This document shows, piece after piece, positions 17,407 through 47,739 of a stretch of 64,000 bases of DNA. The stretch covers positions 96,001 to 160,000 of the forward strand of contig CAVYSW010000003.1 of the NCBI GenBank assembly GCA_963771275.1, read 5' to 3'. Within the stretch, counting starts at the first letter, position 1. Every line of letters starts with the position of its first letter. The DNA comes from an uncultured Gemmatimonadales bacterium. Lineage in GTDB: Bacteria > Gemmatimonadota > Gemmatimonadetes > Gemmatimonadales > GWC2-71-9. The notes beneath the pieces are model-generated. The model worked only from the letters and a program-made list of their open reading frames with translations, made no database searches and had not been told where the DNA came from. The position numbers and the translations under genes are program-made.

Positions 17407-17949
17407 CTACACCACTGCCGACAGCGGGACCGTCAAGCCCGGCAGGACCCCTTCGCCATCCAGGGTGTCGGCCTCCGCCAGCAGCGACTCGCTGCCGTCG
17501 GCGCGGTACACGCGGGCCTGTCGTCGGACGGGGTCCACGACCCAGACGAGCTGACTGCCGGCGCGCAGCCAGTCCGCGACCTTGGCGAGGACTTCTCCGG
17601 GGCGGTCGTCCGGGGAGAGCACCTCGACTACCAGGTCCGGCGCCAGCCTGGCAAATCCGGTGGGCGGCGGGTCCGGCAGCCGCGCTCGGCTGACGAACGC
17701 GACGTCAGGCGCGCGGACCGTGTCGGGGTTCGTGAACAAGGTGAACCCGGTCTCGGCAGCCAACACGCAGCCGAGGCCGTGGCGGTCAACGTGGTCGGTG
17801 ACGACCTTCGCGATCCGGGCAGCAACCTCGCCATGACGGTATCCCGCCGGCTCCCTGACCACCAGGACCCCTCGCACCAACTCGGTGCGCTTGTCCGGGA
17901 GATTGAGGTGCAGGAGATCGTCGGCCGTGAGCCTCGCCGGAGCGCTCAT
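17407..17949 (-). CDS. Uma2 family (PD-(D/E)XK) endonuclease
   Basis: ELVRGVLV, PDTVRAPDVAFV and APDLVVEVLSP. Confidence 0.92.
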   Translation of the reverse strand: MSAPARLTADDLLHLNLPDKRTELVRGVLVVREPAGYRHGEVAARIAKVVTDHVDRHGLGCVLAAETGFTLFTNPDTVRAPDVAFVSRARLPDPPPTGFARLAPDLVVEVLSPDDRPGEVLAKVADWLRAGSQLVWVVDPVRRQARVYRADGSESLLAEADTLDGEGVLPGLTVPLSAVV

Positions 17950-17981
17950 GCCGGCAATGTAGGGATGGTTGTGAGGCATGG

Positions 17982-19714: not shown

Positions 19715-21357
19715 ACATCTACCTCGACGTCGTCTCGCCGGCGGCGAAAGAGGCCGGCGACTACGCCAGCGTCTACGACCTGGAGAACCACGGCCTCACG
19801 AATCTCCGGCGGGTCTACTGGAACCTCCCGACCCCCGCGCTCTACGAGGAGGTCGTGTTCCGCTCGGAGGGCCGGCTCTCCCACCTGGGCCCGATCGTCG
19901 TCAGCACCGGGAAGCACACCGCGCGCGCCGCGGCCGACAAGTTCGTGGTGCGCGAGCAGACCACCGAGCAGCACGTCTGGTGGGGCCAGTACAACCGGCC
20001 GTTCACCGAGGAGAGCTTCAGCGCGCTGCACGCCCGCCTGGTGGGCTACCTCCAGGGACGCGACGTGTTCGTGCAGGACTGCTACGCCGGCTCCGACCCC
20101 GAGTACCGGCTGCCGATCCGCATCATCGCCACCCGGGCGTGGCACGGACTGTTCGCGCGCACGATGTTCCAGCGCATCCGGAACCTCGACCAGCTGAAGA
20201 AGCACGTCCCGGAATTCACCGTCATCGCGGCGCCCTCGTTCATGGCGTCCCCGATGATCGACGGCACGCGGACCGAGACGTTCATCATCATCAACTTCCG
20301 GGAGCGGCTGGCCATCATTGGCGGATCGGCGTACGGCGGCGAGATCAAGAAGACGATCTTCACCGTGCTCAACTTCCTGCTGCCGCTCCAGAGCGTGCTG
20401 CCGATGCATTGCTCCGCCAACGTCGGCGCCGGCGGCGACGTCGCCCTGTTCTTCGGCCTCTCCGGCACCGGCAAGACCACCCTCTCGGCGGACCCCAAGC
20501 GCGGGTTGATCGGCGACGACGAGCACGGCTGGAGCGACAACGGCGTGTTCAACTTCGAGGATGGCTGCTATGCCAAGGTGATCCGGCTGTCGCCCACGGC
20601 GGAGCCGCAGATCTTCGCCTGCACGCGCCGCTTCGGCACCATCATCGAGAACGTCGTGATGGATCCCCTGTCGCGGCGGCTCGACCTGGACGACGACATC
20701 ATCACCGAGAACACCCGCGCGGCCTATCCGCTCGACTACATCGAGAACGCGGTGCCCGAGCGGCGGGCCGGCCATCCCAAGAACGTCATCTTCCTCACGT
20801 GCGACGCGACCGGCGTGATGCCGCCGATCGCGAAGCTCACGCCCGACCAGGCGATCTACCACTTCATCTCCGGCTACACCAGCAAGATCGCGGGCACGGA
20901 GGTGGGCCTCGGCATCGAGCCCGAGATCACGTTCAGCACCTGCTTCGGCGGCCCGTTCATGGTGCACCACCCGTACAAGTACGCCGAGCTCCTGAAGGCG
21001 CGGATGGTCAAGCACGGCGTGGACTGCTGGCTGGTGAACACCGGCTGGACGGGCGGCCCGTTCGGCGTGGGCAAGCGCTTCAGCATTCACCACACGCGGG
21101 CGCTGCTCAACGCCGCGCTCGAGGGCAAGCTGGCCAAGGTGCCGTACAAGCAGGACCCGGTGTTCGGCTTCGCGGTCCCGGCGACCTGCGAGGGCGTCCC
21201 GGACTCGATCCTCGATCCGGCCAACACGTGGGGCAGCCGGGACGAGTACTTCCGCAAGTACGACGCGCTGGCGGCGCGGTTCATCGAGAACTTCAAGCTG
21301 TTCAAGGACGGGTGCCCGGAGCACGTGATCCAGGCCGGCCCCAAGCGGTTGAAGTAA
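19711..21357 (+). CDS. pckA: Phosphoenolpyruvate carboxykinase (ATP)
   Basis: YGGEIKK, MHCSAN, FFGLSGTGKTTLS, LIGDDEHGW and NFEDGCYAK. ATGA overlap with the aminotransferase. Confidence 0.97.
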   Translation: MNIYLDVVSPAAKEAGDYASVYDLENHGLTNLRRVYWNLPTPALYEEVVFRSEGRLSHLGPIVVSTGKHTARAAADKFVVREQTTEQHVWWGQYNRPFTEESFSALHARLVGYLQGRDVFVQDCYAGSDPEYRLPIRIIATRAWHGLFARTMFQRIRNLDQLKKHVPEFTVIAAPSFMASPMIDGTRTETFIIINFRERLAIIGGSAYGGEIKKTIFTVLNFLLPLQSVLPMHCSANVGAGGDVALFFGLSGTGKTTLSADPKRGLIGDDEHGWSDNGVFNFEDGCYAKVIRLSPTAEPQIFACTRRFGTIIENVVMDPLSRRLDLDDDIITENTRAAYPLDYIENAVPERRAGHPKNVIFLTCDATGVMPPIAKLTPDQAIYHFISGYTSKIAGTEVGLGIEPEITFSTCFGGPFMVHHPYKYAELLKARMVKHGVDCWLVNTGWTGGPFGVGKRFSIHHTRALLNAALEGKLAKVPYKQDPVFGFAVPATCEGVPDSILDPANTWGSRDEYFRKYDALAARFIENFKLFKDGCPEHVIQAGPKRLK

Positions 21358-21367
21358 GCATCCCGTC

Positions 21368-21447
21368 ACAATACGAACGAGCCGGACGGTGATAACGCCG
21401 CCCGGCTCGTCTTGCGCAGCAAAACTGGCTGCGGACTCGCACCCTGT
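21368..21447 (-). ncRNA. Putative small RNA (copy 1) with a 5' end antisense to the adjacent tRNA anticodon arm
   Basis: Downstream of a sigma70 promoter. Begins ACAGGGUGCGAGUC, then hairpin CGCAGC/GCUGCG (21415-21433) and a 13-bp terminator-like hairpin (21377-21410). Homolog at 47312-47389. Confidence 0.7.
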
Positions 21448-21453
21448 GGCACG

Positions 21454-21482
21454 ATGATAGGAAGAACGTAGTGCGACGTCAA
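21454..21482 (-). promoter_or_regulatory. sigma70 promoter between the tRNA 3' end and the sRNA
   Basis: TTGACG (21482-21477), 17-nt spacer, TATCAT (21459-21454). Confidence 0.8.
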
Positions 21483-21493
21483 CAGCACGGCGG

Positions 21494-21577
21494 TGCTGGC
21501 GGTGGGATTCGAACCCACAAGAGCCGAAGCTCCACAGGGTGCGAGCCTGTTGCGTTTGCCAGTTTCGCCACGCCAGC
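21494..21577 (-). tRNA. Class II tRNA with a tRNA-Leu-type body and anticodon CGC (Ala codon GCG)
   Basis: Acceptor GCTGGCG/CGCCAGC-A73. D arm GCG-AAACTGGCAAA-CGC. Anticodon arm ACAGG-CT CGC AC-CCTGT. Variable arm GAGC-TTCG-GCTC. T arm GTGGG-TTCGAAT-CCCAC. No encoded CCA. Confidence 0.9.
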
Positions 21578-21855
21578 ACCTCCACAGCGGCGAGCCACTG
21601 ACAACCCGAAGGCGAGAGACGGAGTACTCGCACCCGTTCCGTGCCGCGCGTCAAGATTGTGCGCTTTGGCCATGATCAGGGTTACCGATTCCTCGCCGAG
21701 ATGACCCGGATCGCGCCGGCGGGCAGGGCCGCCCCGGACCTTCGGGGCTGCCTCCAACCGTCCCGGCCTCCTACCTTTCCCGGCGAGTCGCACCATCGCT
21801 GCACGCGCACCCACGGAGGCTCGGTGACCGCCCGGTCCTTCCGCACGCTCCCGCC

Positions 21856-24018: not shown

Positions 24019-24405
24019 CTACCAGACGATCCTGATCCCGGAGTCCTCGAACGCCGGGTCGTTGGTCACGAGCGGCGCTCCCTCGAGCCGGCTTTGCGCC
24101 ACCAGCATCCGGTCGAACGGATCGCGATGATGGACGGGAAGCAGCCCCGCTTCGACTCCGTGCGCCACCGTCACGGGCAGCTCCACGAAGCCTCGTTCCA
24201 GCAGGATGGCCGGCAGCCGCGGCACGGCTCTGTCAGGATCGCTCAGCTTGCCCAGCCGCAGCTTGGTCGCCATCTCCCATCCGGACGCGCCGCTCACCAG
24301 CACGGTGCTTCCGGGATCCGCAATGATCTTCCGCGCCCGGCGTGACAAACGCCGGTCGTCCGCAAGCCACCAGAGCAGGGCGTGCGTGTCGAGCAGGACT
24401 TTCAC
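24019..24405 (-). CDS. vapC: Type II TA toxin, VapC/PIN domain
   Basis: LLDTHALLWW, SGWEMATK and HRDPFDRMLVAQ. Confidence 0.93.
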   Translation of the reverse strand: MKVLLDTHALLWWLADDRRLSRRARKIIADPGSTVLVSGASGWEMATKLRLGKLSDPDRAVPRLPAILLERGFVELPVTVAHGVEAGLLPVHHRDPFDRMLVAQSRLEGAPLVTNDPAFEDSGIRIVW

Positions 24406-24629
24406 CGCTCCCAGGCCTCCCGCTCTTCGTCGGGCAGCGGCTCGAAGAACTCCTTGCCGAGCGTGAAGTGGAGGCCACCGGGCGCGCGAGGTTGGCCGTG
24501 CTCAAGCGGTACCAGTTTCGCCACCGGCTTCCCGGCCCTGGCGAGCGTGATCTCGGCGCCGCGGCGTACCCGCTCCAGCAGTCTGGACAGATGGGTTTTG
24601 GCGTCGTGCACGTTGACGATCTCGGCCAC
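24402..24629 (-). CDS. Type II TA antitoxin, Phd/YefM family
   Basis: VNVHDAKTHLSRLLERV..G.EITLARAGKPVAKLVP. Overlaps the vapC start. Confidence 0.93.
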   Translation of the reverse strand: MAEIVNVHDAKTHLSRLLERVRRGAEITLARAGKPVAKLVPLEHGQPRAPGGLHFTLGKEFFEPLPDEEREAWER

Positions 24630-46407: not shown

Positions 46408-47133
46408 ATGCCCACGCCCCCCGTTCATCTCCTCGCCATCGCCGCCCACCCCGACGACGTCGAGCTGACCTGCGGCGGCTCGTCGATTAAGGCGGTCCGC
46501 CAGGGCTACCGCGCCGCCATCGTGGACCTCAGCGGTGGGGAAACCGGGACCCACGGCACAATGGGGCTGCGCGCCGAGGAGGCCGGGCGGGCCGCGCGGA
46601 TCTTGGGCGTCACCGAGCGCGTCAACGCCGGGTTGCCGGATGCGGGGCTCCACAACACGGACGAGACGCGGCGTGCGGTCGTGGCGCTGATCCGCCGGTT
46701 CGCCCCAAGCGTGGTGATCCTCCCCTTCCCCATCGGCCGCCACCCGGACCACCGCGTCGCGTCGGAGCTGTGCCGCGACGCGTCCTACCTCGCCGGCCTC
46801 AAGAACTACCCGGCGGAGGGCGCGCCGCACCGGCCCGAGAAGATCCTGTATACGCTGGCGTTTCGCGAAGACCCGGTGAAGCCGACGTTCGTCGTGGACA
46901 TCACGGCCGAGTTCGAGACCAAGCTCGCGGCGATCCGCTGCTACGCGTCGCAGTTCGACGGCAAGATGGCGGCGGGCGAGATCTTTCCGTCCGGCGAGGA
47001 CATCTACGAGAACGTGCGGATGCACTGCGCGCGGGCCGGCAGCCTGATCCGGACGGCATACGGCGAGCCGTATCTCACCTACGAGACGGTGCGGATCGAC
47101 GACGTGGTGGCGATGGGAGTGCGGTCGATGTGA
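46408..47133 (+). CDS. bshB1: Bacillithiol biosynthesis deacetylase (PIG-L/LmbE family)
   Basis: AHPDDVELTCGG, DLSGGETGT, RHPDH, FVVDIT...K..AI.CYASQF and YGEP. Confidence 0.8.
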   Translation: MPTPPVHLLAIAAHPDDVELTCGGSSIKAVRQGYRAAIVDLSGGETGTHGTMGLRAEEAGRAARILGVTERVNAGLPDAGLHNTDETRRAVVALIRRFAPSVVILPFPIGRHPDHRVASELCRDASYLAGLKNYPAEGAPHRPEKILYTLAFREDPVKPTFVVDITAEFETKLAAIRCYASQFDGKMAAGEIFPSGEDIYENVRMHCARAGSLIRTAYGEPYLTYETVRIDDVVAMGVRSM

Positions 47134-47179
47134 GCCGGGTGATGCCGCCCGTCGGCACATCCCCCATCAGATTGCCCGG

Positions 47180-47299
47180 CAGAGCCAGCTCTAGCTCGAA
47201 CGGGTAGCACGGCACCCGGACTTCCTGATACAGCCGCCGCTTCGTGAGCTGGTCGGCTCTGCGTGTCGATGGGCTCAGCACTTCCACCACAAAGCGCAG
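47180..47299 (-). pseudogene. Uma2 endonuclease remnant
   Basis: LRFVVEVLSPSTRRADQLTKRRLYQEVRVPCY with no N-terminal half. Confidence 0.7.
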
Positions 47300-47311
47300 T
47301 TGGCTGGACCT

Positions 47312-47389
47312 GCCGAAACGATGAGCCGGCTGGCTTTCGCCATCCGCCTCATTCGGCGCAGCGAAACCACTACGCAAATCGCAGTCCGT
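47312..47389 (-). ncRNA. Putative small RNA (copy 2), homolog of 21368-21447
   Basis: Begins ACGGACUGCGA. Hairpins GCGUAGUG/CGCUGCGC and AUGAGGCGGAUGGC-GAAA-GCCAGCCGGCUCAU, with compensatory changes relative to copy 1. Confidence 0.65.
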
Positions 47390-47395
47390 ACACAC

Positions 47396-47425
47396 AGCGT
47401 ACGCTCGGCCTGCCGCTGCGGTCAA
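47396..47425 (-). promoter_or_regulatory. sigma70 promoter between tRNA copy 2 and sRNA copy 2
   Basis: TTGACC (47425-47420), 18-nt spacer, TACGCT (47401-47396). Same position as in copy 1. Confidence 0.7.
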
Positions 47426-47436
47426 TGGCGGGGGGG

Positions 47437-47521
47437 TGCTGGCGGTGGGACACGAACCCGCACGAGGGCCGAAGCCCGGAGGCTTGCGAGACCTCTGCGT
47501 TTGCCATTTCGCCACACCGGC
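47437..47521 (-). tRNA. Second Leu-body tRNA with CGC anticodon; mismatched stems, probably chimeric or impaired
   Basis: Acceptor GCCGGTG/CGCCAGC-A. Anticodon arm GAGGT-CT CGC AA-GCCTC. Variable arm GGGC-TTCG-GCCC. T arm GCGGG-TTCGTGT-CCCAC. Confidence 0.8.
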
Positions 47522-47739
47522 ACCCCTTCGGTTGCGACGCGAAGTGGATACGTGCGGATGTCTCGCATCGGCCCCCGCCGATGCGAGCATCAACCATGGC
47601 AAGCTCGACGCCGATGACGCAGGACCTCGCACGCGCTACCGAGCCGCGCGCTCAGGCCGGCTCGCCCAGCGCAGCGAAACCGCTCCATCTTCGTCCGCCC
47701 CCCGCCGTTTCCGCCCGGTTCCCGCTACCTTTCTCCCTG

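Follow-up and report, generated by a model that had tools for sequence, protein, structure and literature searches.

We analysed a stretch of 64,000 nucleotides (the window) from an uncultured Gemmatimonadales bacterium (assembly GCA_963771275.1, contig CAVYSW010000003.1) and identified two copies, A and B, of a cassette in which a class II transfer RNA (tRNA) gene is followed on the same strand by a promoter-like site and a predicted small RNA (sRNA) that is complementary to the anticodon arm of that tRNA. The cassettes belong to a family that is seen in one order of soil bacteria and is apparently undescribed. Alignments and predicted duplexes show co-evolution of each tRNA with its sRNA and mutual specificity of the paralogous pairs. 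On balance it is probable that the antisense sRNA would silence a missense tRNA with the potential to insert leucine. Our starting point was copy B, which a first-pass annotation of the sequence had described as a second, diverged copy of a tRNA-promoter-sRNA cassette. This description holds. With a covariance model built from 35 cassettes, from which copy B was left out and in which the intermolecular pairing is not encoded, the five cassettes of the genome score 171.8 (A), 158.7 (E), 158.5 (D), 151.0 (C) and 123.5 bits (B) over their full length. Genuine tRNA-Leu genes score at most 82.3 bits, so the resemblance of copy B to the family is far beyond chance. The positions of all parts are given in Table 1.

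All members share one layout on a single strand: a promoter and a conserved leader of about 90 nucleotides (nt), the class II tRNA, a second promoter (P2), and an sRNA of about 70–80 nt with a terminator-like hairpin. ARAGORN made 62 calls in the whole genome, five of which are true class II tRNAs with A73, a leucine-like D arm and non-leucine anticodons. Each of these five is followed by a TTGnnn-17/18-TAnnnT site and then by a two-hairpin RNA. In the 35-cassette alignment every row has the TTG of the −35 box, at least 90% of the rows keep A2 and T6 of the −10 box, and the −10 positions stand at a constant distance from the seed (the 5' end of the sRNA). Folded alone, the sRNAs consist of a weakly structured 5' seed, a first hairpin (hairpin 1), a short A-rich linker and the terminator-like hairpin. 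Two-sided changes are found in 10 of the 12 pairs of the terminator hairpin and in 2 of the 4 hairpin 1 pairs counted. The leader is closed by a co-varying outer stem (CGGYAGCG / CGYARCCG), and homologous leaders occur in about 15 loci. Rfam has no family for the sRNA or the leader; at the gathering score the tRNA is the only match, and matches at E-values up to 5 are at chance level (the best, PtaRNA1, reaches 22 bits against a gathering score of 47 and lies on both strands over the terminator hairpin).

The relationship between the two RNAs is visible at the start of the sRNA, where about 35 nt align to the reverse complement of tRNA nucleotides ~5–41 with a median of 30 matches. The sRNA therefore probably arose by inverted duplication of the 5' half of the tRNA, with hairpin 1 mirroring the D arm in the form of a remodelled, stable hairpin. 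Exact complementarity is maintained in the part of the sRNA that faces the anticodon loop together with the 5' strand of the anticodon stem; this part changes along with the anticodon, while the complement continues more loosely over the D arm. Anti-anticodons seen in the seeds include GCG, GUG, GCC, GUC, ACC, GAC and GAG, among others. The complement between seed and anticodon arm extends over 12 of 12 nt in copies A and D, over 16 of 17 nt plus one G.U pair in cassette E, and over 17 nt in L061, a cassette with anticodon CAC from another species of the same genus. The first-pass annotation had read this element as a mimic of the codon GCG. No fixed codon is involved, however: the element forms the core of an antisense segment of 12–20 nt that tracks the anticodon of the neighbouring tRNA.

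Between tRNA columns 25–42 and sRNA columns 157–175 of the alignment there is an intermolecular helix of 18 pairs, 14 of which have changed on both sides, with 87% of the cells paired. When the partner columns are slid by 1–3 positions, pairing over the whole 50-pair structure falls from 92.7% to 39.5–45.7%. At the anticodon positions the pairs are C-G (19), G-C (9) and U-A (1); G-C (18) and A-U (9); and C-G (30). Calculated duplex energies agree with this picture. Across 59 non-redundant cassettes, 31 of them found by the covariance model, cognate duplexes have a mean of −35.0 kcal/mol (standard deviation 5.7) compared with −20.2 kcal/mol (standard deviation 5.3) for non-cognate ones. The cognate sRNA is the best of 59 partners for 41 of the tRNAs and ranks first or second for 53. 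In the five-by-five matrix of the genome, the diagonal reads −36.7 (A), −30.9 (C), −35.9 (D) and −37.0 kcal/mol (E), and off-diagonal values lie between −12 and −27; for the tRNA of copy A, the other sRNAs of the genome give −17.5 to −21.7 kcal/mol. The exception is copy B, at −17.8 kcal/mol.

Such pairing was also looked for in control genes. All 18 cassette-family members in the set compared have a complement of 7–16 nt at offsets 41–56, whereas in genuine tRNA-Leu genes and a second leucine-like family the longest downstream complement that covers the anticodon is 6 nt, apart from one case of 11 nt at a far offset. Against the genuine tRNAs of the genome, the best sRNA duplex is that of sRNA A with tRNA-Ala(CGC) (−26.4 kcal/mol), and the rest lie between −14 and −26 kcal/mol, in the non-cognate range. 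A clean case comes from a locus that is syntenic in three species of the genus. There the anticodon is GGU in cassette E, GGC in one relative (L069) and CGC in the other (L082), and in each the seed fits the anticodon. Identity at this locus is 84.5% for the cassette compared with 74.7% for the adjacent permease gene, which agrees with the earlier proposal that selection acts on an RNA.

We next consider the tRNA. The anticodons of the 59 cassettes are CGC (23), CAC (14), GGC (7), GAC (5), GGU (3), GUC (3), CUC (2), UGC (1) and AGC (1), and they would read codons for alanine, valine, threonine, aspartate or glutamate. No leucine anticodon (NAG or YAA) occurs among the 59. For part of the set a non-leucine filter was used in the collection; the 31 covariance-model matches were not so filtered. 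Among the nucleotides that shape the L fold, U8, A14, A15, G18, G19, T54-Psi55-C56, A73 and C75 are invariant in the 35 rows, and A58 and C74 are kept in at least 90%. The 7-bp acceptor stem, the variable-arm stem and the 5-bp T stem are 99–100% paired with two-sided changes, and this pattern of compensation shows selection on the predicted tRNA fold. The anticodon loop is always 7 nt long with A37 in 59 of 59 members. A37 is the rule for tRNAs that read codons starting with G, whereas tRNA-Leu reading CUN has G37. Allo-tRNAs were rejected as an assignment, as the 7/5 arms fit 99–100% of the cells and 8/4 or 9/3 arms do not.

By its sequence the cassette tRNA is leucine-type, that is, class II with A73 and without G3:U70. 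Outside the anticodon arm the tRNA bodies share 72–77% identity with whichever genuine tRNA-Leu of the genome is most similar, compared with 51–69% with its tRNAs for serine, tyrosine, alanine and valine. The 3:70 pair is U-A in 19 of the 35 cassettes, C-G in 8, G-C in 6 and another combination in 2, and is never G-U (copy A has U-A and copy B has C.A). Leucine-identity traits present in the family are A73, the long variable arm, the D arm with A14, A15 and G18G19, and the tertiary positions of the D and T loops (G18:U55, G19:C56 and U54:A58); copy B alone has A58 changed to U and is without C16. In E. coli, according to the accessible text of PMC9976931, leucine identity rests on A73 and the tertiary pairs that join D loop and T loop, the anticodon and variable arm are not needed, the whole anticodon arm is dispensable for charging, and the U54:A58 pair is important for leucylation. 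Because identity in E. coli depends on these elements and not on the anticodon, charging with leucine is the likeliest outcome for the cassette tRNA.

Copy B is the outlier of the family and its most eroded member. It has the same order of parts as copy A, as the first-pass annotation had noted, and identical offsets downstream of the −10 box; the spacing differs in the promoter, where the spacer is 17 nt in copy A and 18 nt in copy B. Hairpin 1 retains GCUGCGC, and the compensatory exchanges in hairpin 2 are present (ACGAG/CUCGU to AUGAG/CUCAU, and CGG/CCG to UGG/CCA). The mean column identity of the two copies in pairwise alignment is 76%. The earlier claim that structure, promoter and anticodon complement are all conserved in copy B is correct for the −35 and −10 boxes, both hairpins and the UGCGA core. 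However, the extended pairing has shrunk to this 5-nt core, the one such loss among the 59 members, and copy B illustrates decay more than conservation. Its duplex energy with its own sRNA is the worst of the 59 cassettes, and its own partner ranks 43 of 59. The tRNA has mismatches at C3.A70 and, as C.A, in the T stem, and a 2-nt insertion precedes the T stem; in addition, C16 is lost and A58 is changed to U. Four of 43 model pairs are broken, two of them in the tRNA.

With the extended pairing lost, A58 changed, pairs broken and an insertion in its leader, copy B is probably decaying; it appears eroded and is not proven dead. A gross pseudogene was rejected, as copy B departs from the family in only 3 of 66 conserved columns, compared with 7 in both C and E. 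In addition, its Rfam tRNA score (RF00005, gathering score 29) of 41.4 bits is near those of D (42.6) and E (45.1), while copy A reaches 57.8 bits, a genuine tRNA-Leu(UAA) of the genome 55.6 bits, and the tRNA of cassette C is not reported at the gathering score. P2 of copy B was not called by a simple consensus scanner, the TACGCT having 3 of 6 matches, whereas P2 of copy A was called with 10 of 12 matches (1 site found compared with 0.1 expected in shuffles). The terminators of neither copy were called by the scanner, because their U tracts are short.

The leader of copy B shares 94% identity over 63 nt with that of L061, the tRNAs of the two being 80% identical and the flanks not shared. 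In the upstream alignment, no TAnnnT is seen in copy B at the position of its relatives' upstream −10 box. A copy of the 55-nt palindrome that splits the leader, 90% identical and in the opposite orientation, lies in the D loop of a cassette of a different species (L080, genome G003). There is no further copy in the genome under study (G000). The arms of the palindrome contain CUCGCA and UGCGAG, which are the loop and anti-loop sequences of the cassettes.

How the cassette might work can be proposed from the pairing. The sRNA would dock on the anticodon loop, which is exposed and is the one long stretch of a folded tRNA that is single-stranded, and would then invade the anticodon stem and the D arm. 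A tRNA docked and invaded in this way would be unable to decode and might be cut as a duplex, perhaps as a substrate of RNase III. More speculatively, the free tRNA would be charged with leucine, since bacterial LeuRS ignores the anticodon, and would place leucine at abundant GNN or ACC codons; the role of the sRNA would then be that of lock or antidote, and the two RNAs would resemble a toxin-antitoxin pair or a conditional, releasable mistranslation switch. A more specific version, which we offer tentatively and regard as doubtful, is an RNA-only toxin-antitoxin system or stress-released mistranslation switch of a new type. Here the toxin would be a stable, leucine-charged missense tRNA and the antitoxin a dedicated sRNA derived from an inverted copy of the tRNA 5' half. 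Such a tRNA would read some of the commonest codons of a genome with 70% G+C (GCG, GCC, GUG, GUC, GAC, GAG and ACC), the sRNA would kiss the anticodon loop and unzip the anticodon and D arms, and the pairs would evolve new anticodon/anti-anticodon specificities at the same locus.

Several observations weigh against the proposed silencing of a missense tRNA. Position 33 is C in 19 of the 59 members, which could equally mean that decoding is not under selection. There is a precedent for a position 33 other than U, as natural mistranslating tRNAs often lack U33 (accessible text of PMC11415595). In the family the encoded A73-C74-C75 is followed by G or C, whereas the genuine tRNAs of the genome are encoded without CCA and nearly all have (C)U after the discriminator, and normal 3' maturation is uncertain for this reason. 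No terminator was called by the scanner in either copy, nor was the promoter of copy B, and with no terminator between tRNA and sRNA the pairing could act in cis. The shuffle control, in which the observed pairing values were not reached in any of 500 column permutations, ignores relatedness and does not give a probability. No reads fell on positions 21150–21750 (copy A) in four RNA runs chosen by shared species label, which is no test of expression, and there was no RNA among the listed sequence records carrying the region. DNA of the window is found in peat, soil and sediment. Finally, at least one locus is inherited vertically and none lies on a known mobile element, unlike a classic addiction module.

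An encoded CC blocks RNase Z. The encoded ACC of the cassette tRNAs points to a different route of 3' processing or to a foreign origin.

One alternative is that there is no independent sRNA and that the leader, tRNA and terminator form one long precursor, in which the antisense trailer and a weaker element in the leader fold onto the 5' half of the tRNA and delay or gate its maturation. The absence of a terminator between the tRNA and the downstream hairpins fits this explanation, as does the encoded ACC, which is not followed by the U-start trailer of genuine tRNAs. In folds of the co-transcript, the long-range duplex beats the cloverleaf plus hairpins by about 17–31 kcal/mol in A, D, E and L064, and not in B. 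Additionally, the leader contains an anti-anticodon-like element with a cognate complement of at least 7 nt in 10 of 36 cassettes compared with 9% of non-cognate pairs, and with a duplex energy of −24.2 kcal/mol for cognate and −20.7 kcal/mol for non-cognate pairs. However, the conservation of the −35 TTG and of −10 A2 and T6 at a fixed distance from the seed, the promoter called in copy A and the start of the seed right at the predicted +1 are all expected of an sRNA with its own promoter, and an orphan copy in the genome keeps the promoter and sRNA without any tRNA. We consider the single precursor improbable as the full explanation. It is compatible with silencing by an independent sRNA, and both could operate.

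The orphan sRNA (locus L205/L241) is flanked by two co-directional genes and has the seed GUGCGAG, a complement of the entire loop of tRNA A. Its duplex energies with all five tRNAs (−12.6 to −27.5 kcal/mol) are in the non-cognate range.

A second alternative, to which we give a similarly small chance, is that the tRNA-shaped RNA is not a decoder and acts off the ribosome, either as a sensor or decoy for proteins that bind tRNA, such as anticodon nucleases or PIN/VapC toxins, or as a sponge that sets the level of an sRNA whose real targets lie elsewhere. C33 would be consistent with this, and so would the gene neighbourhoods. Three of the six loci of the genome (A, D and the orphan) have a Phd/YefM-PIN (VapBC-like) pair at a distance of at most 3.6 kb, where the 15 PIN matches of the genome would lead one to expect about 2.8% per locus. 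Toxin-antitoxin parts lie within 1.5 kb of 5 of 40 loci in relatives, and allo-tRNAs are likewise reported near toxin-antitoxin genes (accessible text of PMC5389517). However, the distances and orientations of the PIN genes vary, and their proximity places the cassettes in accessory regions and shows no functional link. A37 in every member fits a design competent for translation, and so do the loop of 7 nt, A73 and the invariance of the tertiary nucleotides. Furthermore, the seeds differ among cassettes of the same anticodon and match the stems of their own tRNA alone, which makes a shared outside target unlikely.

The remaining two explanations are very unlikely. An ordinary isoacceptor, whether a genuine alanine tRNA that reads GCG or a sign of sense-codon reassignment, would account for the CGC anticodon and for the ARAGORN label of copy B (tRNA-Ala(cgc), 47434–47522), a label we rejected on the missing G3:U70 and the long variable arm; A73 also speaks against it, a normal 74-nt tRNA-Ala(CGC) is present elsewhere in the genome, and the anticodon differs between orthologous loci. 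Relics, in the sense of decaying tRNA-Leu duplicates without present function, would explain the decay of copy B, for which alone this could be so, and the one orphan sRNA; for the family they are contradicted by the two-sided changes that maintain four intramolecular helices and the intermolecular one, by the greater conservation of the cassette than of its flanking gene and by the invariant promoter positions.

The proposed silencing of a tRNA by its own antisense RNA can be compared with several known systems. The antisense antitoxins of type I systems target the mRNA for a small toxic protein. We rejected a type I system for the cassettes, as the target is tRNA-shaped and no conserved protein partner was found beside the 6 loci of the genome or 40 loci of relatives in a scan of open reading frames (ORFs) of at least 60–70 aa, with no search for shorter conserved ORFs. 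In 'type VIII' pairs such as SdsR/RyeA and CreT/CreA both partners are RNA, the antitoxin being the less stable one, and CreT starves the cell of a rare tRNA. The cassettes resemble RNA-RNA toxin-antitoxin pairs in having an antisense sRNA beside the RNA it would neutralise and in the mutual specificity of paralogous pairs, the toxicity of the cassettes being only hypothesised. To our knowledge, in no known RNA-RNA toxin-antitoxin system is a tRNA the guarded RNA. T-box RNAs also read a tRNA by pairing with its anticodon, in such a way that the pairing tracks the anticodon. However, they use a specifier loop of 3–4 nt, read the 3' end and control a downstream gene, whereas the cassette pairing is 12–20 nt or more, would unfold the arm and controls no gene. 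A T-box was rejected on the absence of any Rfam T-box match at the gathering score or at E-values up to 5, and the genes downstream are unrelated and often on the other strand.

Mistranslating tRNAs of other organisms offer a second comparison. The nev-tRNAs of nematodes reportedly have anticodons for glycine and isoleucine. Like the cassette tRNAs they are class II, with a long variable arm and anticodons that are neither leucine nor serine, and they are said to decode an alternative leucine code (PMC3333845). However, they are eukaryotic, and no antisense partner is described for them in the accessible text. The tRNAProX of Streptomyces and Kitasatospora are natural mistranslating tRNAs of proline type and class I with a dedicated synthetase, ProRSx (PMC11415595). 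They share with the cassette tRNAs a body of one identity with the anticodons of other amino acids (alanine and threonine among them), a position 33 that is often not U, and an origin in soil bacteria. In contrast, the body of the cassette tRNA is leucine-type, there is no conserved protein partner nearby, and each copy has its own antisense sRNA; no antisense partner of tRNAProX is mentioned in the accessible text. Allo-tRNAs of Acidobacteria (Mukai et al.) have 8/4 or 9/3 arms and serine identity and were proposed to be missense suppressors and/or regulatory RNAs (PMC5389517). They too are irregular tRNAs of soil bacteria with many non-cognate anticodons, often near toxin-antitoxin genes. 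However, the cassette tRNAs have 7/5 arms and A73, and the words 'antisense' and 'complementary' are absent from the accessible text of PMC5389517. A literature search, which did not cover subscription journals, did not turn up any tRNA described as having an antisense sRNA dedicated to it.

If the proposed silencing is correct, it would add tRNAs to the targets of bacterial sRNAs, with the first bacterial sRNA that has a tRNA as its sole target, and would show how a cell keeps a missense tRNA without poisoning itself. The cassettes are also a clean case of intermolecular co-evolution, in which anticodon and antisense change together at one syntenic locus. They would provide natural, mutually orthogonal tRNA/anti-tRNA pairs, five in one genome with almost no cross-pairing, of interest for genetic-code engineering. 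Gene finders label the cassette tRNAs as tRNA-Ala, -Val, -Thr, -Asp or -Glu, and the tRNA inventories of Gemmatimonadales genomes, as well as searches for reassigned codons in them, are distorted as a result.

The first-pass annotation had proposed a dispersed family, possibly mobile. The family is dispersed, with five cassettes and one tRNA-less sRNA copy in the genome and further homologues in relatives. In a sample of 151 genomes from the order, 29 carry 1–6 cassettes (covariance model, E-value of 1e-28 or better): 13 of 61 genomes in one family (f1), 3 of 62 in a second (f2) and 12 of 27 in a third (f3). Matches are confined to these three, as none of 46 genomes from nine other families in a phylum-wide sample has a cassette. 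Outside the genome, 15 of 41 related genomes contributed 16 cassettes to the collection and public contigs another 18; all of the contigs with labels listed (11 of the 18) are assigned to Gemmatimonadales, Gemmatimonadaceae, Gemmatimonadetes or Gemmatimonadota. Mobility, however, is not shown. There is no integrase or transposase within 5 kb of the six loci of the genome, plasmids have no cassette match, phages have only partial matches of tRNA-Leu size (at most 21% of the query), and a search of IMG/VR with the hairpin 1 pattern gave 0 matches. One locus is inherited in place across the three species of the genus described above. In the six other genomes of the genus, the flanking genes of copies A and B are located on different contigs, and no empty site could be defined.

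No protein gene is common to the neighbourhoods of the 6 loci of the genome and the 40 loci of relatives. The Uma2 remnant that the first-pass annotation placed beside copy B is real, as a sub-threshold match: it covers 35 residues (109–143) of the ORF at 47075–47632 (minus strand), with an E-value of 2.3e-5 and 24.4 bits compared with a cut-off of 27. Copy A has an intact Uma2-family gene (113 bits) 3.4 kb away, at 17407–17979 on the minus strand, and in a relative the cassette L067 is likewise flanked by a Uma2 gene.

Table 1. Cassette parts and neighbouring features. Positions refer to the window unless a contig of genome G000 is named.
Feature	Position	Strand	Basis or remark
Copy B, whole cassette	47313-47521	-	tRNA-like gene, promoter-like site and sRNA of ~77 nt; every noted feature confirmed in the sequence
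Copy B, tRNA-like gene, 87 nt, class II, leucine-type	47435..47521	-	ARAGORN, Rfam tRNA
Copy B, anticodon loop CUCGCAA	47484-47490	-	Sequence
Copy B, anticodon CGC	47486-47488	-	Sequence
Copy B, promoter-like site P2	47396..47425	-	TTGACC at 47420-47425, 18-nt spacer, TACGCT at 47396-47401
Copy B, predicted sRNA	47313..47389	-	Starts 6 nt after TACGCT; AC-GGAC-UGCGA from 47389; 5' end ACGGACUGCGA
Copy B, UGCGA opposite the anticodon	47379-47383	-	Sequence; pairs with UCGCA of the loop
Copy B, hairpin 1	47356-47375	-	Ends GCUGCGC
Copy B, hairpin 2, terminator-like	47321-47352	-	Longer, GC-rich; AUGAG...CUCAU with UGG/CCA
Copy B, tail after hairpin 2	47313-47320	-	CGUUUCGG
Copy B, conserved 5' leader of the tRNA	47522..47660	-	Upstream alignment; split by 55-nt palindromic insertion at 47537-47591
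Uma2-family gene remnant	47204..47308	-	Pfam PF05685; directly downstream of copy B
Copy A (archetype), tRNA-like gene, intact, leucine-type	21492..21577	-	ARAGORN; Rfam tRNA 57.8 bits
Copy A, anticodon loop CUCGCAC	21539-21545	-	
Copy A, promoter P2	21454..21482	-	Consensus scan; TTGACG-17-TATCAT
Copy A, predicted sRNA	21367..21447	-	Starts AC-AGGG-UGCGA
Copy A, seed ACAGGGUGCGAG	21436-21447	-	12/12 complement of the anticodon loop and 3' stem strand of tRNA A
Copy A, hairpin 1	21415-21433	-	
Copy A, terminator-like hairpin	21377-21410	-	
Copy A, conserved structured leader	21578..21670	-	Contains weaker second anti-anticodon element GGGUGCGAG at 21627-21635
Phd/YefM-PIN gene pair near copy A	24019-24629	-	
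Cassette C	contig C3		Anticodon CGC
Cassette D	contig C9		Anticodon loop GCGGCAC
Cassette E	contig C10		Anticodon loop CCGGUAA
Orphan sRNA copy (L205/L241)	contig C5:15279-15396	-	TTGACT promoter-like site, hairpin 1, terminator; no tRNA upstream
Phd/YefM-PIN pair near cassette D	contig C9:161837-162498		
Phd/YefM-PIN pair near the orphan sRNA	contig C5:11717-12432		

ARAGORN also produced long false positives in this genome of 70% G+C, which account for 9 of its 62 calls (for example a 'tRNA-Cys' of 95 nt and a 'tRNA-Arg' of 98 nt). Because of these false calls and the five cassette tRNAs labelled alanine or threonine, tRNA inventories made automatically for such genomes cannot be relied on.

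A second set of leucine-like class II tRNAs was found on public contigs of many phyla (loci L085–L200; Acetobacteraceae, Phycisphaerae, Vicinamibacterales, Terriglobia and others). No downstream antisense segment was found in this set. Its members have a D arm as in the cassettes and a strongly conserved T arm, with the anticodons UGG (14), UUC, CUA (amber), UUA (ochre), CCU, UUG, ACC and others, and they may represent another widespread family of missense or nonsense tRNAs.

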